In this document: piece by piece, positions 5,460 to 53,093 of the stretch | How the letters are laid out: every line of letters begins with the position of its first letter | Numbering within the stretch: position 1 is the stretch's first letter | Source of the DNA: Promethearchaeota archaeon | GTDB lineage: Archaea; Asgardarchaeota; Hermodarchaeia; Hermodarchaeales; Hermodarchaeaceae | Assembly: GCA_048939625.1 (NCBI GenBank) | Contig: JBHLPH010000001.1 | Coordinates: 64,001 to 128,000 of the forward strand | Reading direction: 5' to 3' | DNA: 64,000 bases | Position numbers and translations under genes: made by a program | Notes under the pieces: model-generated | The model's database searches: none | The model's input: only the letters and a program-made list of their open reading frames with translations | Told to the model about the DNA's origin: nothing

Positions 5460-5524
5460 AAGTTGTAAGCTCTTGTGAATGGTTGGCGCAGCGGGGTTTT
5501 TGGTTCGTTTTTAAGCATTTTGGC

Positions 5525-6355
5525 TCATTGGGTGGAAATTGGGTGTTTTCTATGTGTTGGAAGGAGATGTTGGATTAGATAATAGAGGAGAAGCGTTACT
5601 AATGTGGCTCCAAGAAAGGCTATGATAAATGATTGATAGTTTATCCAATAATGAAAGAGAATATGGATTTGAGGAAAGGCGGGATATGACGAGGAGAGCG
5701 CTAAATAGACTTCATGAACCGGTTGGGAGTTTTCGACTAGGATTGATGTAGCACTGATAAGAATACCAGTATGAAATTCGTAGTAATAGATTTCATACTG
5801 TGGTTGGTTTGAGAAATAGGTGAGTTGCCAGCACAAACAAGGGGCTTCTTTGACATAGAGTGAAACCAAGTCGGTTACCGTAAAGGGTGCTATGCGAAGA
5901 AAATTATTAGTTGCAGGAGCATCGCCGTCAATGCGAATCTGATCGCCTAACTGAGGCCCAGGAAGGATCCACCAAGCAGTGTAAAGGGTGAGACCTGCAA
6001 ACACGTAGCTGCGATTCCAACTGTAGGTGTAGGAGGCGTAATTCGTAGTCCAAGTGGTTCCTTCATCCCATGTAAGGTTCCAAGTTAATGAACCGAGGTA
6101 GTAATGATCATCCGTTGAATTCAGAACAAGTTCTACAATACCCCGATAGGAGTTTGAGAGATTGCCATAACAGGATTTAACCACGAGATGATAATTTCGT
6201 ATTTGATTCTGGCTCATTTGTTTATTGTTTGTTTCTATGGAATCCGAAACTGCAATGGGAAGGAGTGTACTAATTAATACCAATAAAGAGATGAAAAGGA
6301 TTGAAAGCAGTTGGGATTTCCTTTTAGGTCGGAGCCTTTTCATTTCACTAAGCAT
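5525..6355 (-). CDS. Hypothetical exported protein with N- and C-terminal hydrophobic helices
   Basis: 276-aa ORF with a signal-like N-terminus, aromatic beta-rich core and C-terminal TM; in the same operon-like run as its neighbours. Confidence 0.7.
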   Translation of the reverse strand: MLSEMKRLRPKRKSQLLSILFISLLVLISTLLPIAVSDSIETNNKQMSQNQIRNYHLVVKSCYGNLSNSYRGIVELVLNSTDDHYYLGSLTWNLTWDEGTTWTTNYASYTYSWNRSYVFAGLTLYTAWWILPGPQLGDQIRIDGDAPATNNFLRIAPFTVTDLVSLYVKEAPCLCWQLTYFSNQPQYEIYYYEFHTGILISATSILVENSQPVHEVYLALSSSYPAFPQIHILFHYWINYQSFIIAFLGATLVTLLLYYLIQHLLPTHRKHPISTQ

Positions 6356-33424: not shown

Positions 33425-34855
33425 TTAAAGGGATAGAAGATATTGATGAATATTCCGTGCAGCAATTTTTCCTTCGCCTGCTGCGGCAATAACGGTGCCT
33501 TCGCCTCCAGTGATGTCGCCTGCCGCCCACACATGGGCGATGGAGGTTTCAAGAGATTCAGGATCAACAATGACATCACCCAATCGGTCACACTCTAATC
33601 CCGGGGTACAACTAGGCACCGAAGGATTGGCACTAGCGCCTATGGCAAAAATAACTGTATCGACAGAAATTTCGAATTCTGATCCTTCAATGGGTTCTGG
33701 TCGACAGCGCCCACTCTCATCGGGTTCGCCAAGGCAATTGCGAAGACATTTCATCACTTTAACACGCCCTTGCTCATCGCCCAGTAATTCAATGGGCTGG
33801 GTCAGGAACTGGAACTCAACCCCTTCTTCCTGAGCGTGATGGTATTCTTCTCGGCGAACAGGCATTTCATTTTCAGACCGACGATAAACGATGTAGACCT
33901 TTGTGGCTCCGAGTCGTAAAGCGGTACGGGCACTGTCCATAGCGGCGTTCCCCCCACCAATAACTGCAACGACTTTCCCTCGAATAATTGGTGTATCAAA
34001 AACAGGGAATTGATAGGCACGCATGAGGTTGACTCGTGTCAAGAATTCATTGCTGCTGTAGCTTCCAACAAGGTTCACTCCAGGAACACGGAGAAAACGT
34101 GGAAGTCCTGCCCCAGAAGCAAGTAGAATGGCTTTGTAGCCTTTTTTGAAAAGGTCATCAAAGGAATATAATTGACCAATAAATGCATTCAATTGAAACT
34201 CGACACCCAATTGTTTCAAGTAATCAACTTCTGCCTTGACAATTGCCTTGGGAAGTCGAAACTCAGGAATGCCATAAACCAAGACGCCACCTGGTTCATG
34301 TAGACTTTCAAAAACGGTGACTTGGTGACCGAGTAGCGCCAAATCACCAGCGGCAGTAAGACCAGCAGGACCACTCCCCACAATGGCTACTTTATGACCA
34401 GTGGGTCTAGGAAGTTGGGGAACCTCAACACCATGCTCGCGTTCCCAATCAGCCAAGAACCGCTCAATGCGACCGATTTCAATGGCATTCCCCTTCTTAC
34501 TGAGAATGCAAGCAGCTTGACATTGAGCTTCTTGAGGGCAAACCCGACCACATATGGCAGGAAGACTGTTCTTTTCCTTGATGATGAGAATAGCCTTCTG
34601 ATAATCACGATTTCGGACCGCTTCTAAGAATCGATTAATTTCAATCTCAACGGGGCATCCACTCACACACTTTGGGTTCTTGCATGCCATGCACCGTTCC
34701 ACTTCTTGAAGTACCTGGTCTTCGCTGTACCCCAAATTAACCTCGTCGAAATTCCGAATACGTATCTTCGGGTCTTGTTCGGGCATTTCCGGGGGCTCAA
34801 TGAGCCAAGGTTTCGGTCGCTCTCTTTTTGCATCTTTGGATTTTCTTGGTGACAT
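33425..34855 (-). CDS. nfnB: NfnB / SudA (GltD-like) large subunit of electron-bifurcating transhydrogenase
   Basis: RCMACKNPKCVSGCPV, CGRVCPQE.QC, GSGPAG, YGIPEFRLPK, GGGNAAMD, YRRS. Confidence 0.88.
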   Translation of the reverse strand: MSPRKSKDAKRERPKPWLIEPPEMPEQDPKIRIRNFDEVNLGYSEDQVLQEVERCMACKNPKCVSGCPVEIEINRFLEAVRNRDYQKAILIIKEKNSLPAICGRVCPQEAQCQAACILSKKGNAIEIGRIERFLADWEREHGVEVPQLPRPTGHKVAIVGSGPAGLTAAGDLALLGHQVTVFESLHEPGGVLVYGIPEFRLPKAIVKAEVDYLKQLGVEFQLNAFIGQLYSFDDLFKKGYKAILLASGAGLPRFLRVPGVNLVGSYSSNEFLTRVNLMRAYQFPVFDTPIIRGKVVAVIGGGNAAMDSARTALRLGATKVYIVYRRSENEMPVRREEYHHAQEEGVEFQFLTQPIELLGDEQGRVKVMKCLRNCLGEPDESGRCRPEPIEGSEFEISVDTVIFAIGASANPSVPSCTPGLECDRLGDVIVDPESLETSIAHVWAAGDITGGEGTVIAAAGEGKIAARNIHQYLLSL

Positions 34856-34943
34856 GGTCAAACCCTCATGTGATGAACCCGGTCACCGAGGGAGCACTTG
34901 CAACAGAATTAAAGCCTTCCGCAAATACAGCGTTGTTCCCGTG

Positions 34944-36797
34944 CTATTTTTTCACCTGCCAAAGATCTTTTGATATGTCTGGCAGATTTAGCTTCAGTAA
35001 GAGCTCGTTAGTAGGCTTCCCAGTCTTTGAATCCCATTGGCTAGTTTTGTAGAATTGTTGCAACTGCTCGTGTAGACTCGGTATTTTGCCTTCATTGGCT
35101 CCGGTTGTGAATGGTTTATTCAGTCCTTTAGGAAGGCAATCATCGGAGGCTGTGATGCCACAGCGAATATTGAACGCCCGTTTCACTGTCATAGTTCGTT
35201 CACCGATTTCCAATAGTTGTATTGGATTGAGAGTGCGGCCTGTTGCTGCATTATAGAGTTTTGTGACGAGAGTCGGTTCAAGGAGGGCAAGTTGACAGAG
35301 AGTCAGCGAATTAAAAAGCGATCGCCAATTTCTGAGTTTCGCGACAGAGGTTCCTTGGTTTTGGTCATTATGCCGATCTCCTGATTTAATTTCATATTCT
35401 GGAATCTCGACTCCCATATCAACAGTATGGATGTCACCTTGCATATGTGAGGCACCAATGGGAGAAACGGCATAAGTGGTGGCTAATCCAAAAAAGGCGC
35501 GAGGGTCGTGCATAGGAAGTTCTAGCCCCTTCACATGATAGGCCAAGTCGGGAGCTCCGATGGTTTCGGCTGCTCGTTGAACCCCTTCCGCTAGTATATC
35601 ACCTAATCCTTGCCGATGGACAATCAATTCAATGAGGTTCAATATGGTATTGCCGTTACCAAACTCCAAGTTCAATGAAGCACTCAAATTACTTGGGAGC
35701 TTTCCAGCTTCGTTGGCAGCAAAACTGAAAGCAATTACATTACCGCATGAAATCGTATCTAAACCATACAGATTACAGAGATGATTCGCTTGGCAAAGTA
35801 TAGGAAGATTATCGACCTGACATAAAGTTCCGAAAGCCGCAACGGTTTCGTACTCAGGACCTGCAATATTGTCTAATTTTACATCTCCTTCATCAATTGT
35901 GATGATAGGGCCACAGCCAATAGGGCAGGCATGACAACGGAATTGTCCAGACCGATATTGTTTCAGAGCTGCTGCGTTGATGCTAGAAATGTCCATAAAT
36001 GGTTCAGAAAAGTAGCGAACAGGCATATCGTTGAATAAGTTCATCAGCATATCGGCACCATACAAAGTCCCGTTAGCACCTAGAAAGGGAGCAAGTCCTT
36101 CAAGGAGCTGATATGCCGTTTTGACATGTTCACGAAAGGTATCCGGATCGGCAAGTTCTGGTTTTTGGGACCCGTGAACACTTATGGCTTTGAGTCGTTT
36201 CGCTCCCAGGACTGCACCGGCTCCAGCTCGTGCACTAGCACGTCCCATATCATTCATGACAGCTGCAAATCTTACTCGATTCTCGCCCGCAGGGCCAATT
36301 GAGAGAACGCGAATCTTTGAATCGCCTACATCAGCTTTAATGAGCTCTTCCGTTGTAAAGCTATCCTTACCCCAGAGATGGTCTGCAGAAACCAAGGAGG
36401 CATTCTCATCGTTAATCTGTAGGAATACTGGGGTTTCAGCTGCACCCGTCACGAGAATACCATCAAGACCCGCTTGACGTAATTCTGCTCCAAAGTACCC
36501 CCCTCCTGTTGATTCACCCCAAATACCAGTCAACGCCGATTTCGTACAGATTGCGTGCCGACCTGTGCATGGAGCACCGGTAGCAGTTAAGGGTCCAGTG
36601 AAAATGGCGACTTCATTCTGTGGGTGAAAGGGATCGAGGTCTTCGATAGGAAGGCGATCATAAAGTAGTCGGCTGGCATAACCAGCTCCACCAATGAAGT
36701 CATGAACATACTTCTGATTGATAGATTTTCGTTTAGCGATTCCTTTTGTTAGATCAACAAAGAGAAACTTGCCCATGTACCCAGGCAGAGAAGTCAA
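34944..36797 (-). CDS. aor: Tungsten aldehyde:ferredoxin oxidoreductase family protein
   Basis: IGPAGE, GAKRLKAI, CHACPIGC, GPEYET, GLDTIS, VKGLELPMHDPR. Confidence 0.92.
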   Translation of the reverse strand: MTSLPGYMGKFLFVDLTKGIAKRKSINQKYVHDFIGGAGYASRLLYDRLPIEDLDPFHPQNEVAIFTGPLTATGAPCTGRHAICTKSALTGIWGESTGGGYFGAELRQAGLDGILVTGAAETPVFLQINDENASLVSADHLWGKDSFTTEELIKADVGDSKIRVLSIGPAGENRVRFAAVMNDMGRASARAGAGAVLGAKRLKAISVHGSQKPELADPDTFREHVKTAYQLLEGLAPFLGANGTLYGADMLMNLFNDMPVRYFSEPFMDISSINAAALKQYRSGQFRCHACPIGCGPIITIDEGDVKLDNIAGPEYETVAAFGTLCQVDNLPILCQANHLCNLYGLDTISCGNVIAFSFAANEAGKLPSNLSASLNLEFGNGNTILNLIELIVHRQGLGDILAEGVQRAAETIGAPDLAYHVKGLELPMHDPRAFFGLATTYAVSPIGASHMQGDIHTVDMGVEIPEYEIKSGDRHNDQNQGTSVAKLRNWRSLFNSLTLCQLALLEPTLVTKLYNAATGRTLNPIQLLEIGERTMTVKRAFNIRCGITASDDCLPKGLNKPFTTGANEGKIPSLHEQLQQFYKTSQWDSKTGKPTNELLLKLNLPDISKDLWQVKK

Positions 36798-36801
36798 TTA
36801 A

Positions 36802-37476
36802 TCACCGTTTCTTCATCCGCTTCATAAGATCAAACATCTGCGCTTGGGTTTCAACCGCATCAGGAGGGATGGTGGTCAGCTGCTTATTACCACCTGCTGC
36901 AGCTGACGCTAGCAAATAAATATGGGCAACACGCTCGAGCAGAAGTGCATTATGGAGTGCCACTTCCATCGTGGGTCCGCAACACAAAGCACCATGATTC
37001 GCAAGGAAGACAGCATTCCGTGGACCTAAAGCTTCCACCACGTTTTTAGCTAGTTCCTCACTTCCAGGCATACCATAATTGGCTACCTCAACTTGACCTC
37101 CAAGACGAATCACGAATTCATCAACAATGGGTGGAAGAGGTTCTTGGAGCACGGCCAAAGCTGACGCATAAATACAGTGAGTATGAACAATGGCGTTTAC
37201 GTCAGGTCTTGCTTTATAGATCGCAAGATGTAGGGGATGTTCGATGGATGGATTTCGATCGCCTTCGATGATTTCACCGTCCATATCGATGATCATTACA
37301 TCTTCAGCACTCATGCACGAATAGTCAACGCTACTTGGTGTAATAGCAATTTGGCCAGTCCCTTCGATGCGATAACTGGCGTTGCCTGAGCTACCGATGA
37401 CCAGTTCTGCTGCTTGCATATTCTGACAGGTAGACAGAACTTGGGTTTTTGCCTCCTTTGTTTTGTTCGAAGTCAT
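36802..37476 (-). CDS. Class II aldolase (L-fuculose-phosphate aldolase-like)
   Basis: SSGNAS, ITPS, PSIEHPLH, VHTH, LANHG; start MTSNK. Confidence 0.9.
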   Translation of the reverse strand: MTSNKTKEAKTQVLSTCQNMQAAELVIGSSGNASYRIEGTGQIAITPSSVDYSCMSAEDVMIIDMDGEIIEGDRNPSIEHPLHLAIYKARPDVNAIVHTHCIYASALAVLQEPLPPIVDEFVIRLGGQVEVANYGMPGSEELAKNVVEALGPRNAVFLANHGALCCGPTMEVALHNALLLERVAHIYLLASAAAGGNKQLTTIPPDAVETQAQMFDLMKRMKKR

Positions 37477-37505
37477 AGTAATTCCCTTAACACAATGGCT
37501 TGACA

Positions 37506-39035
37506 CTATAAATTTACAGATTGGTTGTATAATGTCTGCCATCTGGTGAAATAGGTTGTGTACTGATTATGAATGTCCTCTCGTGGCACTAAATCAGGTC
37601 GCAACTTCACCATCCGGCGCATCGCAGTTGTCAACGATTCATAGACTCCAGTAGCAGTTGCTGCACAAATAGCCGCACCTAAACTTGATGCCTCTGTCAC
37701 TTGCCCGCTTCGAATGATCAAACCGGTCACATCAGCCAGTAATTGCCGCCAAAAGTCGCTTCGAGTCAACCCGCCAGCAACAACACAGGTCTCGACCTGG
37801 CAATTCGCCAAGTTCTGAATCCGCTCGATATTCGTGCGAGCTGCAAAACAAATATTCTCAAATAAAGCCCGTGAAATTTCTCTGATTGAAGTCGGTGTAA
37901 CAACGGGTGAGGTAGGCGGAGGAAAAAGGAAGAATGATGGCCGAACTGTTGTCATGTCACTAGCATCCATGATTTGAGGTCCAAGTAAAGCGATAGTATC
38001 ATTTGAGCCCACAGGAGCTTGGGCAGCTAGAGCTTCAACCTGCTTGAATGTCTGCTCTGTGAGTCCTGTTAACTCGGAACTAAGAGGAGCGATGAAATTT
38101 GTTATAAACCACTTGAGAACTGAACCAGTTGGTCCTGAATTCGCTTCAAGAACCCATTTTTCTGGAAAGAGGAAACGTCCAGTCCAAAGCCGATAATTTG
38201 GATCGATTAATAGTTCAGACGTTACTAATTGAATCGGTCCGGTGTTCCCCGCTACAAACCCAATATCTCCGGATTCAATTGCACCGGATCCGAGAAGTGC
38301 ACATTGTGTATCTGCTCCTCCAATGCCCACCTGAGATGTCCTTGATAATCCAGTACTTTTACATGCAGCAGATGTGACCTGACCAACTAATGTGCCTGAG
38401 TCTGAAATGTCAGGTAATAACTCGCTTGATAATTCTGCCATTTCTAAGATTTCAGGTGCCCATTGAGAGGACCGAATATCCATTAACTGTGTGTTGGAAG
38501 CCTGTGTCGGATCTGTGGTAACCTCTCCTGTGAATTGATAGACTAGCCAGTCACTAATTGATAAGGCATGGCGGATTTTCGAAAACAGACCAGGCTTTTC
38601 GCGTTTAAACCAAAGTAACCGGCACAGTGAATACAGGAGGGGCGGCCAGCACCCTGTAGGCGGACAAGATTCCTCTAAACCTTTTTTAACGGAATCCTGC
38701 GTGAAGACTCCACGGGCATCAAGGTTCGGCCCCGCATAAATTACTTCGCCGTACTTATCGAGAAATACTGCACCATGCCGTTGACTGGTTGGGGCGATAC
38801 CGACGATATCTTTGGGTTGAGAATTCGCTTCTTTGATAGCCAAAGGAATCATTTCGCAAATCATATTCCATACCGCTGGTGCATCGAATTCCTTCCCGAT
38901 GCCAAAAAGACCCTCAGCATCTACGTATTGGATTGACTGAAATTGTCGAGCAAGCGCTATCCCTTCTTGTGAAAATACCATGCATTTGATACCTGAGGTA
39001 CCAAAGTCAATTGTCAGAAAGTGCGACTTGGACAT
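37506..39035 (-). CDS. FGGY carbohydrate kinase (LsrK/YoaC-like)
   Basis: IDFGTSGIK, TSQRHG, PNLDARG, GGADTQCA, AGG, EASSLGAA. Confidence 0.9.
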   Translation of the reverse strand: MSKSHFLTIDFGTSGIKCMVFSQEGIALARQFQSIQYVDAEGLFGIGKEFDAPAVWNMICEMIPLAIKEANSQPKDIVGIAPTSQRHGAVFLDKYGEVIYAGPNLDARGVFTQDSVKKGLEESCPPTGCWPPLLYSLCRLLWFKREKPGLFSKIRHALSISDWLVYQFTGEVTTDPTQASNTQLMDIRSSQWAPEILEMAELSSELLPDISDSGTLVGQVTSAACKSTGLSRTSQVGIGGADTQCALLGSGAIESGDIGFVAGNTGPIQLVTSELLIDPNYRLWTGRFLFPEKWVLEANSGPTGSVLKWFITNFIAPLSSELTGLTEQTFKQVEALAAQAPVGSNDTIALLGPQIMDASDMTTVRPSFFLFPPPTSPVVTPTSIREISRALFENICFAARTNIERIQNLANCQVETCVVAGGLTRSDFWRQLLADVTGLIIRSGQVTEASSLGAAICAATATGVYESLTTAMRRMVKLRPDLVPREDIHNQYTTYFTRWQTLYNQSVNL

Positions 39036-40968: not shown

Positions 40969-41805
40969 TTAACTGTGTGAACACTTCTGCTTATATGACT
41001 CGAAAGCTTGTGTCTCTTGTTCCTTATAGGTGTCAAGCCGGGAGATTAGTAAATCGAAATCTACTTCATGGGCATCAAATTCGGGTCCGTCCACACAGGC
41101 GAATTTCATTTCCCCACCTACATCAACGCGGCAGGCGCCACACATGCCAGTTCCATCAACCATGATGGGATTTAAGCTGCATTCAGTTTTGACATTGAAG
41201 GGTTTGGTGGTAGCAGCAACAAACTTCATCATGATTGGGGGCCCAACGGTGAAAACATAATCAATCTGTCTGTCAGATTCAAGGAGCTCTTTGAGTTTTG
41301 TAGTTACAAAACCGTGTGTCCCTTTGGAACCGTCGTCAGTGGTGATGTGGAGTTCATCACTAATCTGGTTGAGTTCAAGCTCACATACCAAGAGATCCTC
41401 TTGCCGGGCTCCTAAAATTGTAATGAGGTAATTTCCAGCCGCTTTGATTTGACGTGCCCGTGGAAGAGCCGGAGCAGCACCACAACCACCAGCAACCACT
41501 ATAACCGTCCCATATAGCTCAACAGTTGGAGCATGCCCTAAAGGTCCAAGGATATCTTTGATAAAATCACCAGGCTTCAGTTTAGCTAACTCCATCGTTG
41601 ATTTGCCCACAACCTGGAAAACAATGGTTACCAAACCTTTCTCACTCTCCCAATCTTTGAGGGTAAGAGGAATGCGTTCACCCTGATCATGTAATCGAAG
41701 AATCAGAAATTGGCCAGGCTGAGCTTTAGCAACAATTTCTGGTGCTTCAACATCAAACTCGTAAATATCAGGAGCGATTTTCCTGGTCGCTAACACCTTG
41801 AACAT
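40969..41805 (-). CDS. nfnA: NfnA / SudB small subunit (FNR-like, 2Fe-2S)
   Basis: PGQFLILR, GERIPLT, GPLG, TDDGSKG, MVDGTGMCGACRV, CVDGPEFD; start MFKVL. Confidence 0.92.
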   Translation of the reverse strand: MFKVLATRKIAPDIYEFDVEAPEIVAKAQPGQFLILRLHDQGERIPLTLKDWESEKGLVTIVFQVVGKSTMELAKLKPGDFIKDILGPLGHAPTVELYGTVIVVAGGCGAAPALPRARQIKAAGNYLITILGARQEDLLVCELELNQISDELHITTDDGSKGTHGFVTTKLKELLESDRQIDYVFTVGPPIMMKFVAATTKPFNVKTECSLNPIMVDGTGMCGACRVDVGGEMKFACVDGPEFDAHEVDFDLLISRLDTYKEQETQAFESYKQKCSHS

Positions 41806-41876
41806 AGAGTCAACACCTGTATTTGTATTGGGGAAAGTACTGAATGGCGGGACACAAGCGATGGTAAAAAGATTAC

Positions 41877-42605
41877 TCACACATCAATAGAAACTGTTAG
41901 CCCATCAACCGTGTAGGAGTAGGCATCATAGGTTTTGGGATTATAACGTCCACCAGCCTTCTTAACTTGGAGTAATCGTGTGTTGCTTTCACGATTCAAT
42001 TCAATGACGACTTGCGTGGTATGTTCGATCGCTGCAAGAAATTCTTTGTTGTGGGCATTTCGGTTTATTGTCCAGTAAGCTAAGGTTTTGTACGCATACA
42101 ATGCGGGACAGATATGGCCAAAAAGGCTCCGAGCGTTCTCTTGCCCCCAAAGGATTTCCATTGCTGTGAGACTATTAATTACAAGGCGGGTTCCATCTCC
42201 AATAAACTCCCTTTCGATACGACCAAAAAAGTGGTGGAACCTTTCAATCTCTCGGGACATAGGGACCTTTCGTATCCAAGAAGGAGCTTTATCATAAAAA
42301 TCCGTGAATACAAGTTCCCCACGACCCCCAGATTCGGAGAAACAATCTAACACTAAGAAATAATCCTCCCAACCCGAAGGAAGAGAACTAATTAGGGGTT
42401 TAAGAAATAATAGCAAAGCCTGTGGTGGATAAATGAAATCCAAGTAAATAACTTGCTTCTCTTCATCTATCCCCTTCCTCATGAAGTTCTGAAGGAATTC
42501 GTTTACAAAAGTTCCTGTTTCATACTCCCAGACTACGTTTTCACCGAGAATTAACCCTTCACCAAGAATGTCATCTAACACCGGAATACCAGTCGAAGTT
42601 GGCAT
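41877..42605 (-). CDS. KaiC/RecA-superfamily ATPase-like domain protein with degenerate P-loop
   Basis: STGIPVLDDILGEG start, LVLDCFS, RLVINSLT, LLQVKKA; the Walker A position reads YETGTFV (no GKT). Confidence 0.8.
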   Translation of the reverse strand: MPTSTGIPVLDDILGEGLILGENVVWEYETGTFVNEFLQNFMRKGIDEEKQVIYLDFIYPPQALLLFLKPLISSLPSGWEDYFLVLDCFSESGGRGELVFTDFYDKAPSWIRKVPMSREIERFHHFFGRIEREFIGDGTRLVINSLTAMEILWGQENARSLFGHICPALYAYKTLAYWTINRNAHNKEFLAAIEHTTQVVIELNRESNTRLLQVKKAGGRYNPKTYDAYSYTVDGLTVSIDV

Positions 42606-42664
42606 GAGACCTCAATCCATTCAATTCTTTTCATCCGCGCATTAAATGTATGATTGTTGTTTGA

Positions 42665-42710
42665 TGTACATACGTGTACAATTTGAACATAAGCTTTGAA
42701 TAGTTGAACA
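42665..42710. promoter_or_regulatory. TGT/AACA operator array flanking the gdh TATA box
   Basis: TGTACA 42665, TGTACA 42675, TGAACA 42684, TGAACA 42705; TTTGAATA lies between the last two. Confidence 0.6.
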
Positions 42711-42740
42711 CTATATTCTATCTTAACCAGGTGAAGTCAC

Positions 42741-44519
42741 ATGCTGAACCTGGTTGAATTAACACCAACTGAATTGGGCTTGCAAAAGTTAATGGTTGAC
42801 TTTTTTGCAGAAAAGCCTCAATACACAGCCGGACTGGATCAATTCACATCCACACATTATGCCTTAATGACGGCATTATCCGAGAATTACAACATTCCTT
42901 TTGCAACAACCTCAATTATCTTCGAACAGCTAGCCATGAAGATTCGTCGGGCGGAATATCTGAATGTCGAATGTCCTGATGATGCATCAGGAAATGGGTG
43001 CTTAACCCGTCAGGAACATCAAATTCTGAGTGCAATGTTTGATTATTTTGCTGAACAACCGTCTCAAGCTGAAGCAAGCCTTCTCGCTGATCGTCGCGAA
43101 GCGTTCATCGATTACTTCAAATGGATTCACGGTGGTGATGTTGCTAAAATCTCAACCTGTTGTGATCGTGTAATCGATCAATTACAGAGAGCAGTCTCTG
43201 CAACAATCCAAACCTTGGATGAAGTTACACCTACACCTAATCCTTATGAAGCGGCCCTCGAACAACTGGATCTCGCTGCCGAAAAGCTGGGATTAGACCC
43301 AGCCACTCATGAGGTTTTACGTCATCCAGAACGAATTCTCATCGTAAATATTCCAGTCCAAATGGACGATGGATCAGTTCGTGTTTTTACGGGATACCGT
43401 TCTCAGTACAATGATGCGCTGGGACCTACAAAAGGAGGTATTCGCTATCATCCTGATACAACAATCGATGAAGTTATTGCCCTATCTGCCTGGATGACTT
43501 TCAAAACAGCTGTCGTGGGCTTACCCTTGGGTGGCGGTAAAGGCGGGATACGGTGTAATCCTAAAGAGATGTCATTAGGCGAGCTTGAACGTCTAACTCG
43601 TGGATATACAAGAGAAATGGTTCGATTCATCGGTCCACAATTAGATGTTCCGGCCCCAGATGTGTATACGGATGCACAAACAATGGCATGGATTATGGAC
43701 GAATATGTCGAATGTACGGGTGCATATTGTCCAGGTGTGGTCACAGGAAAACCTGTGGGGATTGGTGGTTCGAAAGGCCGAGAAGAAGCAACCTCACTTG
43801 GCTTGGTCTTCACTGTTATTGAGGCAGCTCAAGAACTTGGTGTCCCCCTAGACGAAATCCGGGTGGCTATTCAAGGGTTTGGCAACGTTGGGTTCAACGC
43901 CGCCCGAATTCTCCATGAGAGAGGGTGTAAAATCATTGCGGTGTCTGACTCTAAAGGAGGAATCCTAAATCCCGAAGGATTGGATCCCCTGAAGGTAAAG
44001 GAACATAAGAAGCAGTCTGGTTCCGTCATTGGTTACAAGGATTCTATTCAAATTAGTAATAGTGACCTTCTGGAACTTGAATGCGATATACTCATTCCAG
44101 CAGCATTAGAAAACGTCATTACTGCTGAAAATGCCCCTCGAATCAAAGCGAAGATAATCGCTGAGGGAGCAAACGGTCCTACAACACCGGATGCGGATCT
44201 CATTCTCCATGAACAAAACGTCTTCCTCATCCCTGACATTCTTGCGAATGCAGGTGGCGTTACGGTTAGCTATTTCGAAATGGTCCAAAATCAAATAAAC
44301 TATTTTTGGACTCTGGAAGAAGTACATAGTAAACTCAAACAAATTATGCAGACCGCATTTCATGATGTACTAGTGCTTTCTAAGGAACATGATGTTCCGA
44401 TGCGTATTGCTGCATATATGCTTGCTTTGAGTCGTATCAGCTATGCAATGCAGACTAGGAAACATTCGTTCTCACCAAAACGAGTTACTGGTTCAAAACC
44501 GAAAATCTTGAAAGGGTAA
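42741..44519 (+). CDS. gdhA: Glutamate dehydrogenase with ~165-aa duplicated N-terminal extension
   Basis: GPTKGGIRYHP, WMTFK, GGGKGG, DVPAPD, QGFGNVG, EGANGPTT, NAGGVTVSYFE; AGGTGA SD. Confidence 0.92.
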   Translation: MLNLVELTPTELGLQKLMVDFFAEKPQYTAGLDQFTSTHYALMTALSENYNIPFATTSIIFEQLAMKIRRAEYLNVECPDDASGNGCLTRQEHQILSAMFDYFAEQPSQAEASLLADRREAFIDYFKWIHGGDVAKISTCCDRVIDQLQRAVSATIQTLDEVTPTPNPYEAALEQLDLAAEKLGLDPATHEVLRHPERILIVNIPVQMDDGSVRVFTGYRSQYNDALGPTKGGIRYHPDTTIDEVIALSAWMTFKTAVVGLPLGGGKGGIRCNPKEMSLGELERLTRGYTREMVRFIGPQLDVPAPDVYTDAQTMAWIMDEYVECTGAYCPGVVTGKPVGIGGSKGREEATSLGLVFTVIEAAQELGVPLDEIRVAIQGFGNVGFNAARILHERGCKIIAVSDSKGGILNPEGLDPLKVKEHKKQSGSVIGYKDSIQISNSDLLELECDILIPAALENVITAENAPRIKAKIIAEGANGPTTPDADLILHEQNVFLIPDILANAGGVTVSYFEMVQNQINYFWTLEEVHSKLKQIMQTAFHDVLVLSKEHDVPMRIAAYMLALSRISYAMQTRKHSFSPKRVTGSKPKILKG

Positions 44520-44564
44520 GGGCAGTCATCACTGCCTTTCTTTTACATTTGTTGGATCCTAAGG

Positions 44565-44600
44565 CGTACACTATGTACAACATTAATAAACGAGTGTACA
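44565..44600. promoter_or_regulatory. (T/C)GTACA operator array flanking the TATA box of the RHH regulator
   Basis: CGTACA 44565, TGTACA 44574, TGTACA 44595 (same 9/21 spacing as at gdh); TTAATAAA lies between the last two. Confidence 0.6.
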
Positions 44601-44624
44601 TCGCATCAAAATGAGGGCCCACTG

Positions 44625-46556
44625 GTGTCGGTTCATATTCACACAACCATCCCCAAAAAAACAGGGGCAATTTTAGATGAATTAGCTGGAACATATGGGA
44701 CCAAAAGCCGCGTTCTTGAAATAGCTTTGGAAACCTTGCTTCGCGTTGATAAAGTTGGTTCCTGTGACGATTGTCAATTGAAGGCACAAATCGAAGAACA
44801 GCTAAAACTACGCGAAACATTAGAGCTTGCTTCATTTCGCCGAGACTTATTGGATGAACTTCTCAAAATCGCTTTAGCGGACCAAACACTGGAAGAATTC
44901 ATTCAATGGCAACAAAAGGAAGCACAACATACTATAGAGCTAATTCAGAGTGCCATCCAGTGGAAAACACCAACACAATTTAGTGAATTTCTAGCGGTGA
45001 TAGAGCTAATCAGCAAGACAACAAGGGGATTTGAGATTGCTTCCCATCGAGAAATGGATCACTCAATCGTTTTACGACCCGTAGTATTTCTTAGACTACC
45101 GGAATTAGTTGCTCTACAACTCGCGATCATACTGGAAGGCATTGGCTGCCATTTTGATCTTCGAATTATACGAAAAGAGGTTATAATCAAAATGCTTCGA
45201 AGAGATTTATCAGCAATTCGACGTACTGATCCTATGCAACTAATCCTTCAAAGCCTAAAGGAGAAGTTAGCCACCCTTCAACCATTACTTTTCAAGGACC
45301 AACTTGCCTTAGTTGGACCTGCCTTCTTGAAATGGGCAACAAAGAACCTTGAAGTGTCGGTCACAGACTTAGGAACTGCAATTGAGGATATTCAATTATT
45401 CCTTAAACCCAGCGAATTGCCTGATGTACCTCAAGAATTCATGCAAGGATTGCTCGAAGCAACTCGGGCAATGAATTGGATTTCGCAGTACAGAATCGAT
45501 CATGAGTCCAATAGTCAATATCATATAACCTTTCAAGCAACATCACCCCCCATGGCTAACATCGCTACAATAAGCTTTGCAATTATTTTGGCAACACGAG
45601 GATGGAAACTCAACCGATACTCCACTGAATATAACCACGGAACATTAGACGTAGAGCTAGTGGGAGAAAGCTCTCAGAATATTGTGGACCAGTTGAGTGA
45701 TTTGAATCTGTATGGCGTAGTAAACGAACAGTTCTTGGATTCCATTCCAGTTCCACGAGAACTATATGAGACCTTTACGGTGAAAGTCTATGACAGTGAT
45801 CGTCGACGATTTGACGAAATCTATCGAAATATGGGTTTCCGAGTGGCAAATGCTATTCGTATGCTAGGTAGCGATGATGATTCACGCATATTACAACTCG
45901 CTCAAATGTTTATTGAGAAAAACATCCACCAAGCTCAGCCCAATGCTGACGTTCGATTTGTTGATGATGAAAATTTCTCAATAGTCTTCAAGAAAATGAA
46001 TGCGGTAACATTGGCTAGCCAACGATTAATCATTGGAGCGATGCTTGAGGCTTTAGGGTATCAAGTTTCTTTCAAGGAGTTCCAAAATCTACTGAGTGTT
46101 GTGATGAAGAAAGTTGACAAACCATTCCTAAGTCCTCTTCATCGAAGGGAAGTTGTTCAAATGGTGAGTGATGCAATTGCCGCAGATTCAGCAAAGAATG
46201 CCCTTAAGCAAGTGAAACCCACATTAGACGATCTATTTCCATTGGATTATCCTTGGACGATACATGAAATTGGAGACCGGCTCTTAGAGATGTATCGTGA
46301 GTTAGGAATACAAGTGGAAATCGAGTACTTCGAGGGGGGGTTTACCCTCAAATATCGCACTTGCCCCTATTACAAACTGGTTAAGAATGATCAAAAGACA
46401 TGGCTCTGTACCTTCCGAAAAAAGGCCATTGAGTATATTCTCTCACGAGTAACAAAAACAGGTAAAGGACAAATCAGGGTACTCAAGTCGCTAATTCAAA
46501 ACGGCACACACCCCTGTGAATATGCGGTCTTCTTAGAGGAGTTCCTTGCTACATAG
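44625..46556 (+). CDS. Putative transcriptional regulator: RHH plus four tandem V4R-like domains
   Basis: N-terminal VHIHTTI-helix-TKSRVLEIALETL (RHH), CDDC, three repeats ending IILEGIG / IILATRG / AMLEALG, and a terminal V4R/MetOD1-like domain with TCPY..LC..PCEY. Confidence 0.7.
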   Translation: MSVHIHTTIPKKTGAILDELAGTYGTKSRVLEIALETLLRVDKVGSCDDCQLKAQIEEQLKLRETLELASFRRDLLDELLKIALADQTLEEFIQWQQKEAQHTIELIQSAIQWKTPTQFSEFLAVIELISKTTRGFEIASHREMDHSIVLRPVVFLRLPELVALQLAIILEGIGCHFDLRIIRKEVIIKMLRRDLSAIRRTDPMQLILQSLKEKLATLQPLLFKDQLALVGPAFLKWATKNLEVSVTDLGTAIEDIQLFLKPSELPDVPQEFMQGLLEATRAMNWISQYRIDHESNSQYHITFQATSPPMANIATISFAIILATRGWKLNRYSTEYNHGTLDVELVGESSQNIVDQLSDLNLYGVVNEQFLDSIPVPRELYETFTVKVYDSDRRRFDEIYRNMGFRVANAIRMLGSDDDSRILQLAQMFIEKNIHQAQPNADVRFVDDENFSIVFKKMNAVTLASQRLIIGAMLEALGYQVSFKEFQNLLSVVMKKVDKPFLSPLHRREVVQMVSDAIAADSAKNALKQVKPTLDDLFPLDYPWTIHEIGDRLLEMYRELGIQVEIEYFEGGFTLKYRTCPYYKLVKNDQKTWLCTFRKKAIEYILSRVTKTGKGQIRVLKSLIQNGTHPCEYAVFLEEFLAT

Positions 46557-46656
46557 GAGGAGAAGAGGCGCATTATGTATCGAAGTCGAATGTATCACCA
46601 AACTCTGTATAATCCTGGAGGTTTTAAAATCAGGAGAAATAAAGGAGTGGTTGGAT

Positions 46657-49470
46657 TTGGTAACAACTAATTTGGATCAAATTTTTAATCCCAAGAGTAT
46701 TGCCCTCATTGGCGCTAGCGAAGAGGAGGGATCAGTAGGGCAAATTCTCATGCGTAATTTAACGATGATTGCATTACATGAAAAGGTCTTTCCAATTAAT
46801 ATTCGTCACAAAGAAGTAATGGGCATCAAGACTTTTGCCAAGGTGGGCGACGTCCCTGAACCCATTGATTTAGCTATAATCGCGACTCCAGCAAAAACCG
46901 TGCCTGGGATTGTGGAAGAATGTGGACAAGCAGGAATCAAGGGAATAATCATCATCTCTGCAGGGTTCAAAGAAATCGGCTCTGAAGGCCTCGCCCTTGA
47001 GAAGGAATTAATCGAACTTAAACGAAAATATAACCTTCGAATAATTGGACCGAACTGCTTTGGTATCATCCGTCCGAGCATCCAACTAAATGCAACCTTT
47101 GCAGAAGCGATGCCAAAAGCAGGAAACATTGCATTCATTTCTCAGAGTGGAGCATTGGGTTCAGCTATCATCGATTGGGCACTTAGCCAAAATCTAGGAT
47201 TCAGTAATTTCGTTTCGGTCGGTTCGATGATCGATGTGGATTTTGGAGATTTGATCGACTATTTTGGAACCGATCCCCAAACGCGAAGCATAATTTTGTA
47301 TATTGAAGGCATAACTGATGCAAGGAAATTCATGAGTGCAGCCCGCCATTTTGCAAAAACCAAACCCATTATCGTAGTAAAGGCAGGTAAATATGGTGAA
47401 AGTGCCAAGGCTGCGGCATCTCACACAGGATCATTAACCGGTTCAGATTTGGTTTACGATGCAGCATTTAAACGGGCAGGCATTGTCCGAATCGAAGAAA
47501 TTTCGGATCTCTTTAATGCCGCAGAAACCTTGGGGATGCAACCATTACCTGGAGGCTCGCATCTAGCCATTATTACAAATGCGGGGGGTCCCGGAGTGAT
47601 GGCTGCGGATGCGTTACTCCAAAGAGGAGGAAAACTCGCACAGCTTTCAGAAGCTACAATAAAAGAATTGGATAAGATTTTACCGCCGTTTTGGAGCCGA
47701 GGGAACCCTATTGATATTCTTGGTGATGCTGATGCGCAGCGTTACCGCGAAACGATGAGTATATGTTTGGCTGACAAAAACGTTGATGGAATCCTGCTTA
47801 TTTATACACCACAAGCAATTGCGGCTGCAGAAACAATCGCGAAGAATATCGTTTCGGCTTGTGACGCCCGTGGAGGCTGCGAAAAGACTATTTTGACTTC
47901 TTTCATGGGTGGGAACAAAGTTGAGAAGGCAAACCAAATTTTCACAGAAAACGGATACCCCACCTATTGGACACCCGAACATGCTGTTGCCACTTACATG
48001 TACATGTACCAGTATAAGCGAAATCTTGAATTATTATACGAAACCCCAGAAGAACTACCCATTGAGAGTGCTCCACCAAAACGTCCTATTACGGTGCTTT
48101 TACGGAATGCTGCTAAGCAGAAACGTGAGATCCTTACTGAAGTTGAAGCCAAACAACTTTTAGAATTCAACAATATCCCAGTGGTAAAAACCCGAATCGC
48201 CAATTCCGTGGATGAAGCTGCCGCCGTAGCCGCCACAATAGGGTATCCTGTCGTCTTAAAGATTCATTCACCAGATATCACACACAAATCTGATGCGGGT
48301 GGAGTGAAACTCAATCTTCATGACGATAACGAAGTCCGTAATGCCTACAACGCCATTATCGAAGCAGCGAAAGCACACAACCCAACAGCGAAGATCCAAG
48401 GCGTGACAGTTCAGGCAATGATTGAGCCAACAGGAACTGAAGTGATTCTAGGCGCAAAACGCGACCCGCTCTTTGGACCTGTCATACTCTTTGGAATGGG
48501 AGGTGTCGGTGTCGAGTTTTTCAATGATGTATCACTTGGTTTTCCTCCTCTTAATCAAACCCTTGCTCGACGCATCATGGAGGACACCCGAGTGTACGAA
48601 GTTCTGGTCAAAGGATATCGGCGGATTCCTCCTGTAAATCTAAAATTACTGGAAGAACTCATTGTTCGCTTCTCTCAAATGATTGTTGATTTTCCTGAAA
48701 TTAAAGAACTGGACATAAATCCCCTGCTTGTTGATGATAAACACGTCATTGCCCTTGACGCGCGCGTGGTTATCGATTTATCGCGAATTGAAAAAAAAGG
48801 AGACAGCCCACAGGAACTGGTAATTAGTCCCTATCCAAAACGGTATGAACAGATTTGGCGAATACGTGATGGGCGAACGGTCTTATTCCGTGCTATCAAA
48901 CCTGAAGATGAACCGCTTTGGTTGGAAATGTTTCAGAACTTTTCTGAAGAATCGATTCGCTACCGGTTTTTCGAAATTATCAAAGATACTCCCCATGAAG
49001 TACGAATACGATATACTAACATCGATTATGACCGTGAAATCGCGATCGTACCAATCCTTAATGAAAGAGGAAAAGACCGAATTCTTGGTGTGGTGCGATT
49101 AATTGAAGAACCCGATGGGAAACGTGGAGAAATCGCCTTCATCATTGCTGATCCGTGGCAAGGTCTTGGCCTTGGCTCGAAGCTGATTGATTATATGATT
49201 GAAATTTCAATCGACCGAGGATTGGAAGAAATCTATGGAGTGATGCTTCCCGATAACTATCGAGCCCATAAGCTAATGCAAAAGATGGGATTTACACTCG
49301 AAAAGACAAAAGATGACTTGGTCAAAGCTACGCTTGATTTAGCCGCAGAAAGGCGATGGAGAACGCCACGAGAATTTCGACCAAGCGCAGAACCAGAAAA
49401 TGAAGCTGAAGCACCCAAGAAAGGTGTTCAGTCAAAAAAGAAACGAACAAAAAAAGCAAAAAAGCCCTGA
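46657..49470 (+). CDS. ADP-forming acyl-CoA ligase (alpha+beta) fused to GNAT (Pat-type protein acetyltransferase)
   Basis: IFNPKSIALIGAS, GPNC, SQSGA, SHTG, TNAGG, HKSDAGGV, DINPL, and C-terminal GNAT WQGLGLG; TTG start (46651 or 46657) after AGGAG. Confidence 0.9.
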   Translation: MVTTNLDQIFNPKSIALIGASEEEGSVGQILMRNLTMIALHEKVFPINIRHKEVMGIKTFAKVGDVPEPIDLAIIATPAKTVPGIVEECGQAGIKGIIIISAGFKEIGSEGLALEKELIELKRKYNLRIIGPNCFGIIRPSIQLNATFAEAMPKAGNIAFISQSGALGSAIIDWALSQNLGFSNFVSVGSMIDVDFGDLIDYFGTDPQTRSIILYIEGITDARKFMSAARHFAKTKPIIVVKAGKYGESAKAAASHTGSLTGSDLVYDAAFKRAGIVRIEEISDLFNAAETLGMQPLPGGSHLAIITNAGGPGVMAADALLQRGGKLAQLSEATIKELDKILPPFWSRGNPIDILGDADAQRYRETMSICLADKNVDGILLIYTPQAIAAAETIAKNIVSACDARGGCEKTILTSFMGGNKVEKANQIFTENGYPTYWTPEHAVATYMYMYQYKRNLELLYETPEELPIESAPPKRPITVLLRNAAKQKREILTEVEAKQLLEFNNIPVVKTRIANSVDEAAAVAATIGYPVVLKIHSPDITHKSDAGGVKLNLHDDNEVRNAYNAIIEAAKAHNPTAKIQGVTVQAMIEPTGTEVILGAKRDPLFGPVILFGMGGVGVEFFNDVSLGFPPLNQTLARRIMEDTRVYEVLVKGYRRIPPVNLKLLEELIVRFSQMIVDFPEIKELDINPLLVDDKHVIALDARVVIDLSRIEKKGDSPQELVISPYPKRYEQIWRIRDGRTVLFRAIKPEDEPLWLEMFQNFSEESIRYRFFEIIKDTPHEVRIRYTNIDYDREIAIVPILNERGKDRILGVVRLIEEPDGKRGEIAFIIADPWQGLGLGSKLIDYMIEISIDRGLEEIYGVMLPDNYRAHKLMQKMGFTLEKTKDDLVKATLDLAAERRWRTPREFRPSAEPENEAEAPKKGVQSKKKRTKKAKKP

Positions 49471-51716: not shown

Positions 51717-53093
51717 GTGAAGAAAATGACAACATTGATTCCCATCCTGGTCTTACTAGCCATGCTGATACTGAGCCCAATCATTGCGCCAACTATTAGC
51801 TTACAACTAGGAGAGTCAGGAAAGAACAATCTATTGCAATCAAAGAGCCCTCCAGCTCCACAGATCACAGCGGACTGGCTTGATGTCAACCTTGATGTAG
51901 AATTCGGTTTTGATAGTGATTCGGTGACCATTGGATGGACCGGACGTCCCCGAACTGGCACACAATCCCCCTTTAATCCCCTTTATACCTGGACGAAATC
52001 TGGCTCTATTGATGGTGGAATCTGGGAAGGCAATCCTGGAAATGCCACAATTTCAGCTGTTGCGTGGGATAATACTACAACAGCTTCTGAAGTCAGCGAT
52101 TTCTTGAATTACACCATGGAAAACTACGTACGTTTTACCAGTTATCCCTCCCTTAGTAGCTTTAACTTTACAGACTACGAGAATCAAACCACCTGGCTTT
52201 TTAATGACGTGATTGCCTCACATGAAGAATTTCTTAACAACACGTTCTATCTTGTAAACAACGCTACAGCGTACCTTATGGATGGTTTTAATGCAACCGG
52301 AATCATCGGAAGTCTCAGTGAATATCACATTCATCTTGAATGGTTCGAGAGCGACCCAATTGCTGATGTGACCTTCACCTACACCATCTCGGATATCATA
52401 ACCCAGATAGGGAACACCTACGACTTTCGCCTTGGAGATGCTTTTGGCTATTCTGCTCCTCTGGATCTAACTGGCGAAGGCACTGTAATTATTAATGCCC
52501 CACATAATCGTGTCTACTTGAATGGAACCCCCACGTGGGTATTTGAGGATAAGCCCTTCCCTTTCTATCCAATAGGCACTGAGGAATATTCGCTGTCAGA
52601 TTCTACTGAGGATTTTGAGTACTGGATTTCCTTCCAAGAGGGATCCTCGGTACTGTCCATTACCCGAGAGCTCAGCACGAACGTCCTCAATCGTGGTGAT
52701 CTCCTGACTGTAAGAATCATAGTTGAAAACACTGGAAATACCATCTTTACTGAAGCGATAATTCGGGATGTTGTTTCAATTGAAACGGGTGTATTCCAGC
52801 TCGTTAGTGGAATCGCATCGACAACCATTCAAGACCTTCATCCTGGCGAAAACGTCACCCTTGAGTACACTGCTATGGCACTTCAAGCAGGTATCTACGA
52901 ATATCCCTCAGTCATCATCGTGGGTTTTGATGTGTTCAGCAGCCAACACACCTTTACTTCCATGACCGAATCGATTACCATCGGAAGTGGTTTAATCCCA
53001 AGTGAACTCTCCCTAATCGGGATAGTTGTCGCCATTATCATTATCTTCATTATTCTACTCATCCTCTATCGGTTCCGACGACGAATCTTCTAG
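51717..53093 (+). CDS. Membrane-anchored surface glycoprotein with C-terminal DUF11/BatD-like Ig domain
   Basis: Signal peptide, about 10 N-x-S/T sequons, GDLLTVRIIVENTGN...LHPGENVTLEY, C-terminal TM plus RFRRR. Confidence 0.8.
   Translation: MKKMTTLIPILVLLAMLILSPIIAPTISLQLGESGKNNLLQSKSPPAPQITADWLDVNLDVEFGFDSDSVTIGWTGRPRTGTQSPFNPLYTWTKSGSIDGGIWEGNPGNATISAVAWDNTTTASEVSDFLNYTMENYVRFTSYPSLSSFNFTDYENQTTWLFNDVIASHEEFLNNTFYLVNNATAYLMDGFNATGIIGSLSEYHIHLEWFESDPIADVTFTYTISDIITQIGNTYDFRLGDAFGYSAPLDLTGEGTVIINAPHNRVYLNGTPTWVFEDKPFPFYPIGTEEYSLSDSTEDFEYWISFQEGSSVLSITRELSTNVLNRGDLLTVRIIVENTGNTIFTEAIIRDVVSIETGVFQLVSGIASTTIQDLHPGENVTLEYTAMALQAGIYEYPSVIIVGFDVFSSQHTFTSMTESITIGSGLIPSELSLIGIVVAIIIIFIILLILYRFRRRIF

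Follow-up and report, generated by a model that had tools for sequence, protein, structure and literature searches.

A three-gene glutamate dehydrogenase module with conserved promoter boxes and a candidate ribbon-helix-helix regulator in Hermod-type Asgard archaea and Bathyarchaeia

Introduction

With PutA of Escherichia coli, a ribbon-helix-helix (RHH) domain is fused to proline dehydrogenase, and several 6-bp operator sites are found in the divergent putA-putP spacer. With RocG and GltC of Bacillus subtilis, it is a glutamate dehydrogenase (GDH) which controls a transcription factor, doing so by direct binding. Here we consider, in light of these systems, a locus found within a 64,000-nucleotide stretch of archaeal DNA, i.e., positions 64,001 to 128,000 of contig JBHLPH010000001.1 (assembly GCA_048939625.1, Promethearchaeota archaeon), which as a whole is referred to as the ‘window’. 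At this locus a gene for a KaiC-like protein, one that lacks a P-loop, is divergent from a gene for an unusually long GDH (gdh), and the latter is followed by a gene for a 643-residue protein which we call the ‘regulator’. Our preferred reading, to which we assign a probability of roughly 0.6, is that these three genes form a locally acting module in which the regulator acts as an RHH-type repressor-sensor, controlling both its own gene and that of a specialised second GDH.

The host genome is a 2.3-Mb Asgard metagenome-assembled genome consisting of 83 contigs (88% complete), and the nearest relatives of the window carry the labels Hermodarchaeota or Promethearchaeota. Bathyarchaeia, in which the module is also found, are like Asgard archaea plentiful in sediments, and both are believed to subsist mostly by fermenting protein and amino acids. 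To our knowledge, almost nothing has been learned experimentally of gene regulation in either group, and a literature search found no paper on this three-gene GDH module.

Conservation of the Three-Gene Unit

The conserved unit consists of three genes: that for the P-loop-less KaiC-like protein (-) and, divergent from it, those for the long GDH (+) and the regulator (+). An initial annotation, made from the letters of the window, had instead proposed four genes acting together, the fourth being pat, which encodes a Pat-like ACD-GNAT fusion protein. All four open reading frames (ORFs) are present as that annotation listed them. Neighbourhoods were compared by tblastn, making use of three distant homologues along with 80 loci obtained by a scan in which each species was represented by one genome. 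All 60 of the loci with matches to all three genes and with an oppositely oriented KaiC-like gene display the order seen in the window, and do so amidst unrelated flanks. Locus L069 is rearranged, i.e., gdh (-) followed by KaiC-like (+) and regulator (+), and nevertheless retains all three genes. As pat accompanies the other three genes solely in Asgard loci, the four-gene version of co-conservation fails, while the three-gene version passes.

The distribution of the module is narrow. Among 400 Asgard genomes, full-length orthologues are found only in the window's own family, that is, in 11 of 18 genomes and in the window's genome as well. The regulator is found in 17 of 401 Bathyarchaeia genomes (~4%), 16 of which possess an intact KaiC-like gene, with the copy in the 17th located near a contig end. 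Two Bathyarchaeia genomes that yielded no full-length regulator possess broken pieces of the KaiC-like gene only. At locus L086 (8614-9240) the KaiC-like gene is split into ORFs of 66 and 86 residues, next to which 81 residues of the regulator remain, and the only GDH there is canonical, with no long GDH. At L084 (587-982), a stand-alone last module of the regulator, 131 residues in length and a decayed copy, adjoins a GDH with a short N-terminus.

In a maximum-likelihood tree of the regulator, rooted with a pair of distant, long-branched paralogues, an Asgard clade (support 100) falls inside of Bathyarchaeia (the enclosing branches having support of 97 and 99). This fits with the block having been transferred once into the Hermod-type family, though the root is uncertain.

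The initial annotation had looked as well towards Deltaproteobacteria, a range that was not recovered. The scan instead gave Asgard and Bathyarchaeia records, plus a single fragment (L083) from a contig titled Candidatus Acidoferrum. There, a 135-residue stretch matching the regulator's C-terminus at 53% identity opens a 3.5-kb contig, and this probably is a binning error rather than a bacterial homologue.

Boxes at the Promoters

The spacer between the KaiC-like gene and gdh, along with that between gdh and the regulator gene, contains short boxes of the TGTACA type, as listed in Table 1. That shared boxes link two of the promoters had been proposed from the window itself, and this has held up well. 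The tandem pattern GTACA-N3-6-GTACA occurs three times over the 64 kb, versus 0.14 expected, with all three occurrences found within the two spacers, and 4 of the window's 12 TGTACA sites fall within the 240 bp which the two spacers represent. Across 61 loci, 184 TGTACA sites are found in 18.1 kb of spacers (10.1/kb) versus 253 in 1.10 Mb elsewhere (0.23/kb).

It is not just the boxes but also their positions which are conserved across the two phyla. Common to both is a layout consisting of two to three boxes at 9-10-bp steps, then a TATA-like element, and then one box located 37-52 nt before the gdh start. By a strict pattern, the arrangement box-box-box-TATA-box is found in 36 of 61 divergent spacers, with TGTTCA/TGTACA variants seen in the rest, and 59 of 61 gdh-regulator spacers possess two or three TGWACA boxes. 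TGTTCA/TGTACA boxes likewise are retained in the divergent spacer of the rearranged locus.

Over the whole of the 2.3-Mb genome, a search for tandem or clustered boxes gave two matches outside of the module. Both are intragenic, and these candidates were dismissed as chance. With the only other box clusters lying inside of ORFs, the regulon therefore looks to be local. No box enrichment was found near two distant paralogues of the regulator.

Directly after the gdh stop, at 44512-44548, is a hairpin followed by a run of T (-14.1 kcal/mol, z -3.7), with a similar GC-rich inverted repeat found at the same place in Asgard relatives. This likely is a terminator between gdh and the regulator transcript, which suggests that the two genes are transcribed separately, each from a promoter with boxes of its own.

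The 643-Residue Regulator

More than 300 homologues of the regulator were found, nearly all of them 641-655 residues in length and all unnamed, with identities of 60-93% within Asgard archaea and of ~50% to Bathyarchaeia. Pfam provided no match for the window's regulator as a whole, that is, no model spanning the protein. What can be said of its architecture begins with an AlphaFold model (mean predicted local distance difference test score, pLDDT, of 68), in which a short unstructured strand is followed by an N-terminal helix pair, then by a CxxC motif (C47, C50), a long helix, and finally four αα-ββ-α-ββ repeats, here described as modules 1 through 4. A search of the entire model against the PDB using Foldseek gave nothing at E <= 0.001.

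In an all-versus-PDB structural search, residues 2-44 are closest to PutA in its RHH-operator complex (Z 6.2, root-mean-square deviation 1.6 Å, 43 residues aligned), with TacA antitoxins matched at Z 5.9-6.1. Residues H4, H6, T7, and T8 of what would be the β-strand are invariant among 30 aligned orthologues, which is compatible with a conserved DNA target. Module 3 resembles Bet3/TRAPP proteins (Z 8.3, 7.8, and 7.4) and also the phenol sensor domains of PoxR (Z 7.7) and DmpR (Z 7.6), while module 2 resembles H-NOX (Z 6.4) and module 1 a Thorarchaeota TRAPPC3 (Z 6.1). All of these Z scores, from residues 2-44 onward, are middling.

Module 4 may be assigned at the level of sequence. MetOD1 (PF18546), which is HNOB/V4R-like and possesses three conserved cysteines (PMC5847659), is matched in 22 of 24 members, at a best E of 1.9e-5, though the window's own regulator scores 16.5 bits versus a cut-off of 23.8 bits. 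A Cys/His cluster (C580, C595, H629, C631) is invariant. With both the profile match and the cysteine cluster in place, module 4 can be viewed as a member of the V4R/MetOD1/H-NOX/Bet3 superfamily. A profile search of the PDB with module 4 gave no meaningful match. Comparison of the four modules with each other using hhalign found no similarity (probability <3%), and ‘4x V4R’ for that reason is a statement about predicted structure. That is, the earlier description of this protein as an RHH domain plus multiple V4R-like domains is a fair one structurally, with sequence-level proof extending to the last domain but not to the RHH domain or to modules 1-3. In the ESM Atlas, 10-14% of the proteins in the clusters of the regulator carry a Pfam 38.1 family, PF27313 (AF_0136_C), which is absent from the local Pfam search.

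Shorter paralogues of 380-530 residues are found in other Asgard families (21-32% identity), and these keep the H.HTTI strand along with the CxxC motif and have fewer modules. None of the six that were fetched has a KaiC-like or GDH neighbour, which shows the association with a KaiC-like protein and an extended GDH to be peculiar to the 643-residue subfamily. The neighbours at two loci were scanned, consisting of CoA-transferase and MtmB/corrinoid genes in the one case (L091) and radical-SAM and amine-oxidase genes in the other (L089). Such neighbourhoods are the pattern expected of local one-component regulators.

The Long Glutamate Dehydrogenase

Over most of its length the long GDH resembles an ordinary enzyme. 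Pfam domains PF02812 (1.9e-57) and PF00208 (1.2e-81) are found, though beginning only at residue 196, and the NCBIfam model GdhA_Arch is matched at 555 bits. From residue 166 the core aligns end to end with the GDH of T. maritima (2tmg; E 1.7e-142), such that GGGKGG, GFGNVG, and C-terminal motifs line up, i.e., the catalytic and dinucleotide motifs are intact. On the strength of this alignment, the core is of the ordinary hexameric, archaeal/Thermotoga type.

The N-terminal extension is a different matter. Its start codon and first residues (ML.L/S.E.) are kept in 61 homologues, which upholds the initial annotation's recognition of an extended GDH and which implies that the extension is real, translated protein. 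The extension is acidic (isoelectric point of 4.5) and by alignment consists of two repeats, each with a motif of the DFFAE/DYFSE type. It is modelled with confidence as two β-α-α-α-β units (pLDDT 80, predicted template modelling score 0.70). A structural search gave a top match of Z 4.1 only, with rows consisting mostly of winged-helix/HTH-type domains, which is a hint and nothing further, while Foldseek versus the PDB gave nothing at E <= 0.001. When 1.84 billion representatives were searched exhaustively with phmmer, just 8 clusters came back, one of which is full length (a 593-residue long GDH), the rest being pieces of 77-170 residues that align from residue one. So far as such searching can indicate, the extension lacks sequence relatives outside of the long-GDH family.

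The same genome possesses a second GDH, one that is canonical (432 residues) and which adjoins a gene for a GltB-like protein (PF01645; 532 residues) on another contig, C58 (L099:1884-3482(+) and 4348-5646(-)). The long GDH thus can be viewed as a specialised paralogue. No TGWACA boxes were found near the promoters of that canonical GDH/GltB-like locus.

The P-Loop-Less KaiC-Like Protein

That the gene divergent from gdh encodes a P-loop-dead KaiC/RecA-like protein, as had been suggested, is well supported. The window's protein matches Pfam PAXNEB at 28.8 bits (cut-off 28) and KaiC at E 5e-5, which is under the KaiC cut-off, while a profile built from 20 family members finds KaiC among PDB entries (E 2e-6, residues 3-95). 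Where KaiC has its P-loop sequence, GTGKT, this family has GTF(A/V)(R/N/H), with Lys and Thr missing from all 20 aligned members. The Walker A motif GxxxxGK[ST] consequently is absent from the alignment, while Walker B is kept (LLVLD, with an invariant D87 that aligns to KaiC ILD). Given this family-wide loss of the P-loop Lys and Thr, the protein would be a pseudo-ATPase rather than an active KaiC, and for this reason we describe it as a ‘pseudo-KaiC’.

Identities in this family are 60-97% overall and 60-68% between Asgard archaea and Bathyarchaeia, and the presence of several invariant histidines, cysteines, and aromatic residues points to surfaces under constraint. In the ESM Atlas, the neighbours of pseudo-KaiC are clusters of archaeal RAD55/KaiC proteins. 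Searching among longer proteins found no fused form of pseudo-KaiC, which is weak evidence, and prediction of a complex between pseudo-KaiC and GDH residues 1-165 scored 0.00, a value which counts neither for nor against binding.

Features and Neighbouring Genes

Table 1. Features of the module and of its surroundings. Coordinates are those of the window unless residues or another locus are indicated.
Feature	Position	Strand	Remarks
P-loop-less KaiC/RecA-like (PAXNEB/Elp4-like) protein, 242 residues	41877..42605	-	Core member
Divergent promoter spacer, 135 bp, KaiC-like gene/gdh	42606..42740	.	Boxes and TATA-like elements
ATTTAAT-type TATA for KaiC-like gene	near 42651-42660		Read by eye
TGTACA boxes, divergent spacer	42665-42670, 42675-42680
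TGAACA boxes, divergent spacer	42684-42689, 42705-42710
TATA-like TTTGAATA for gdh	42695-42702		Between boxes 3 and 4
Long glutamate dehydrogenase, 592 residues	42741..44519	+	Core member; Pfam ELFV_dehydrog_N and ELFV_dehydrog
GDH N-terminal extension, 163 residues	42741..43229	+	Alignment and structure model
Spacer, gdh/regulator gene	44520..44624	.	Hairpin, boxes, TATA-like element
Boxes before regulator gene	GTACA 44566-44570; TGTACA 44574-44579, 44595-44600
TATA-like ATTAATAAA for regulator gene	44582-44590		Flanked by boxes
643-residue regulator	44625..46556	+	Core member; structure model, alignment, module-4 profile match
Regulator parts	residues: RHH ~1-45; modules ~76-222, ~226-350, ~376-500, ~506-643
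Pat-like ACD-GNAT fusion	listed ORF 46546-49470, revised 46651..49470	+	Lineage-specific neighbour, outside core
NfnA/SudB-like FAD/NAD-binding iron-sulfur protein	40969..41880	-	Asgard-specific neighbour; NCBIfam PRK06222
Shorter regulator paralogues	L089:6790-8349, L090:4064-5611, L091:3253-4383, L094:7418-8560	-, +, +, + (in that order)

The genes on either side of the module differ between the two phyla. Directly behind the KaiC-like gene is an nfnA-like gene (396 bits versus a 220-bit cut-off), so that the KaiC-like gene does head a run with nfnA, as had been noted from the window. The start of nfnA probably is located ~25 codons downstream of that of the listed ORF. This adjacency is seen only in Asgard loci, with a 47%-identical match found several kb off in two Bathyarchaeia loci. 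Beyond the nfnA-like gene the minus-strand run continues with genes for a small membrane protein, SCP2, a 2-hydroxyacid dehydrogenase, an FGGY kinase, a class II aldolase, aldehyde:ferredoxin oxidoreductase (AOR), and an NfnB/GltD-like protein, the last three at 33425-37542 (-), with the AOR of tungsten type and the NfnB/GltD-like protein possessing Fer4_20 and Pyr_redox_2 domains. Of 45 Bathyarchaeia loci, 36 instead have a GltB-like (PF01645) gene following the KaiC-like gene in the same orientation, and in two others it is an immediate but convergent neighbour. In 34 loci a canonical GDH is also present in this flank.

On the other side, the fusion of ACD and GNAT parts that had been reported for the gene after the regulator is evident from Pfam and NCBIfam, with the Pfam domains CoA_binding, Succ_CoA_lig, ATP-grasp_5, and Acetyltransf_1 together giving a Pat-type architecture. 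The gene pat more likely starts with the TTG at 46651, so that 94 bp separate it from the regulator gene. Further along, at 51717-53093 (+), is a gene for a 458-residue protein that matches TRAP_beta (translocon-associated protein beta; E 4.7e-7), a homologue of which, in L005, has an additional weak CLIPPER_2 match. This may be a eukaryote-like signature protein.

How the Module May Work

As a locally acting repressor-sensor, the 643-residue protein would be a one-component transcription regulator. RHH dimers formed by its N-terminus would bind the 6-bp TGTACA-type boxes, these being spaced approximately one helical turn apart. Within the divergent spacer, three of these boxes lie just upstream of the TATA-like element of gdh, and one lies between that element and the start codon, over the expected start of transcription. 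The regulator's own promoter displays the same box-TATA-box arrangement. With boxes thus found around TATA-like elements, their occupation would be expected to shut off both gdh and the regulator gene, the latter representing autoregulation, and might also modulate the divergent KaiC-like operon by way of the spacer which they have in common. The Cys/His cluster of module 4, together with three degenerate Bet3/V4R-like modules, may sense a small molecule or instead a metal or redox signal, which then would release or tighten DNA binding by the regulator. Pseudo-KaiC and the acidic N-domain of the GDH, as obligate companions, most likely would be non-catalytic protein-protein adaptors, serving to couple the state of the enzyme to the regulator.

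A number of points weigh against this repressor-sensor reading. RHH_3 is matched in only 5 of 25 regulator members, at E 0.011 or worse, a PDB profile search using the RHH region gave no RHH match, and pLDDT is low at residues 1-8. Modules 1-3 in turn appear V4R/Bet3-like at middling Z only, as gauged from the model, and are without sequence similarity to module 4. Another factor could in principle be the binder of the boxes. Lastly, between phyla the regulator is ~50% identical over 643 residues and pseudo-KaiC ~65% identical, which is more than a simple repressor needs, and conservation that is this high hints at a larger assembly.

A possibility which we view as tentative, and on which we would not wager, is an enzyme-coupled switch. 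Here the GDH N-domain would dock on pseudo-KaiC, on the regulator's modules, or on both, with the state of the GDH, whether catalytic or allosteric (glutamate, 2-oxoglutarate, NAD(P)H), being read out directly at the TGTACA operator. If true, then this would be an undescribed three-protein ‘trigger enzyme’ circuit at the glutamate node of Bathyarchaeia and Hermod-type Asgard archaea, and a new wiring of a central nitrogen/carbon branch point to transcription.

More doubtful is that the assembly is principally an enzyme complex, in which pseudo-KaiC and the 643-residue protein dock on the N-domain of the long GDH and serve it chiefly as subunits, whether structural or allosteric, and with DNA binding either secondary, as with a PutA-like trigger enzyme, or absent. 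The unusual conservation and fixed length of the three proteins would be expected of such a complex, as would a family-specific N-domain on the enzyme and the strict co-inheritance and co-loss of the genes, and the top structural match of the RHH region is itself to a trigger enzyme. Boxes that are conserved and centred on promoters, along with a β-strand that is invariant, nevertheless favour a real role in DNA binding, paralogues of the regulator exist without a GDH or KaiC-like gene, and no fused forms were found.

The four-part nitrogen/redox switch of the initial annotation, in which Pat acetylates GDH and is joined by a pseudo-KaiC scaffold and a sensor-repressor, we consider to be improbable. 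It draws on pat being directly after the regulator gene, and on the same strand, in the window as well as in close relatives, and on a domain architecture which is that of Pat-type lysine acetyltransferases. Against membership, pat is missing from the neighbourhood of every Bathyarchaeia locus that bears the trio, the spacer before pat lacks TGTACA boxes, and the GNAT part scores 57 bits versus the Pat model's cut-off of 460 bits. Equally improbable is synteny without joint function, i.e., a block spread by horizontal transfer with the KaiC-like gene serving its own downstream operon (GltB-like/NfnA-like), for while the Asgard clade is nested within Bathyarchaeia in the regulator tree, suggesting block transfer, and genes downstream of the KaiC-like gene differ between the two phyla, the order has been kept in 60 loci despite deep divergence (41-56% for the regulator), a rearranged locus still holds the three genes together, and the KaiC-like gene decays where a full-length regulator was not found.

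Returning to the repressor-sensor reading, the module offers a defined operator sequence along with a candidate regulator of new domain architecture, a GDH with a domain seen nowhere else, and a pseudo-ATPase that is inherited and lost alongside. The proteins are small and soluble-looking, so that predicted operator binding and complex formation should be directly testable following expression in E. coli.

Comparison with Known Systems

Domains of the iKaiC type are counted among archaeal signalling parts (PMC5847659). With these, with single-domain proteins of the archaeal RAD55 family, and with Elp4-PAXNEB, pseudo-KaiC has in common a RecA/KaiC-type N-terminal region and the Walker B aspartate. 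It differs from them in being a distinct, highly conserved orthologous group, one that is linked to a GDH and to a candidate RHH regulator, and in having lost the P-loop family-wide.

Sensors of the V4R/MetOD1/H-NOX/Bet3 sort, such as those of PoxR, MopR, and DmpR or the MetOD1 of methanogen response regulators, are similar to the regulator as seen with modules 3 and 4. Here, however, there are four tandem modules per chain, three of which lack both the cysteine cluster and detectable sequence similarity, and where those sensors have REC or AAA+/HTH domains, a predicted RHH domain is found instead.

Extra N-terminal domains, regulatory ones, also precede the GDH catalytic core in large bacterial GDHs (115 and 180 kDa). 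The extension here comprises only 163 residues, lacks sequence relatives outside of its own family, and precedes a core of the ordinary hexameric type. RocG-GltC provides an analogy and only that, i.e., the idea of the state of a GDH being passed to a dedicated regulator of glutamate metabolism, and that regulator is not homologous to the one considered here.

The closest likeness is to PutA. The RHH fold of PutA is the best structural match for regulator residues 2-44, and in both systems short hexamer boxes recur in a divergent spacer from which an amino-acid dehydrogenase gene is, or here would be, controlled. What differs is how the parts are distributed: With PutA the RHH domain is fused to the enzyme, whereas at this locus the putative RHH domain is found on a separate protein along with four V4R/Bet3-like modules, the enzyme possesses a novel N-domain of its own, and pseudo-KaiC is present as a third member.

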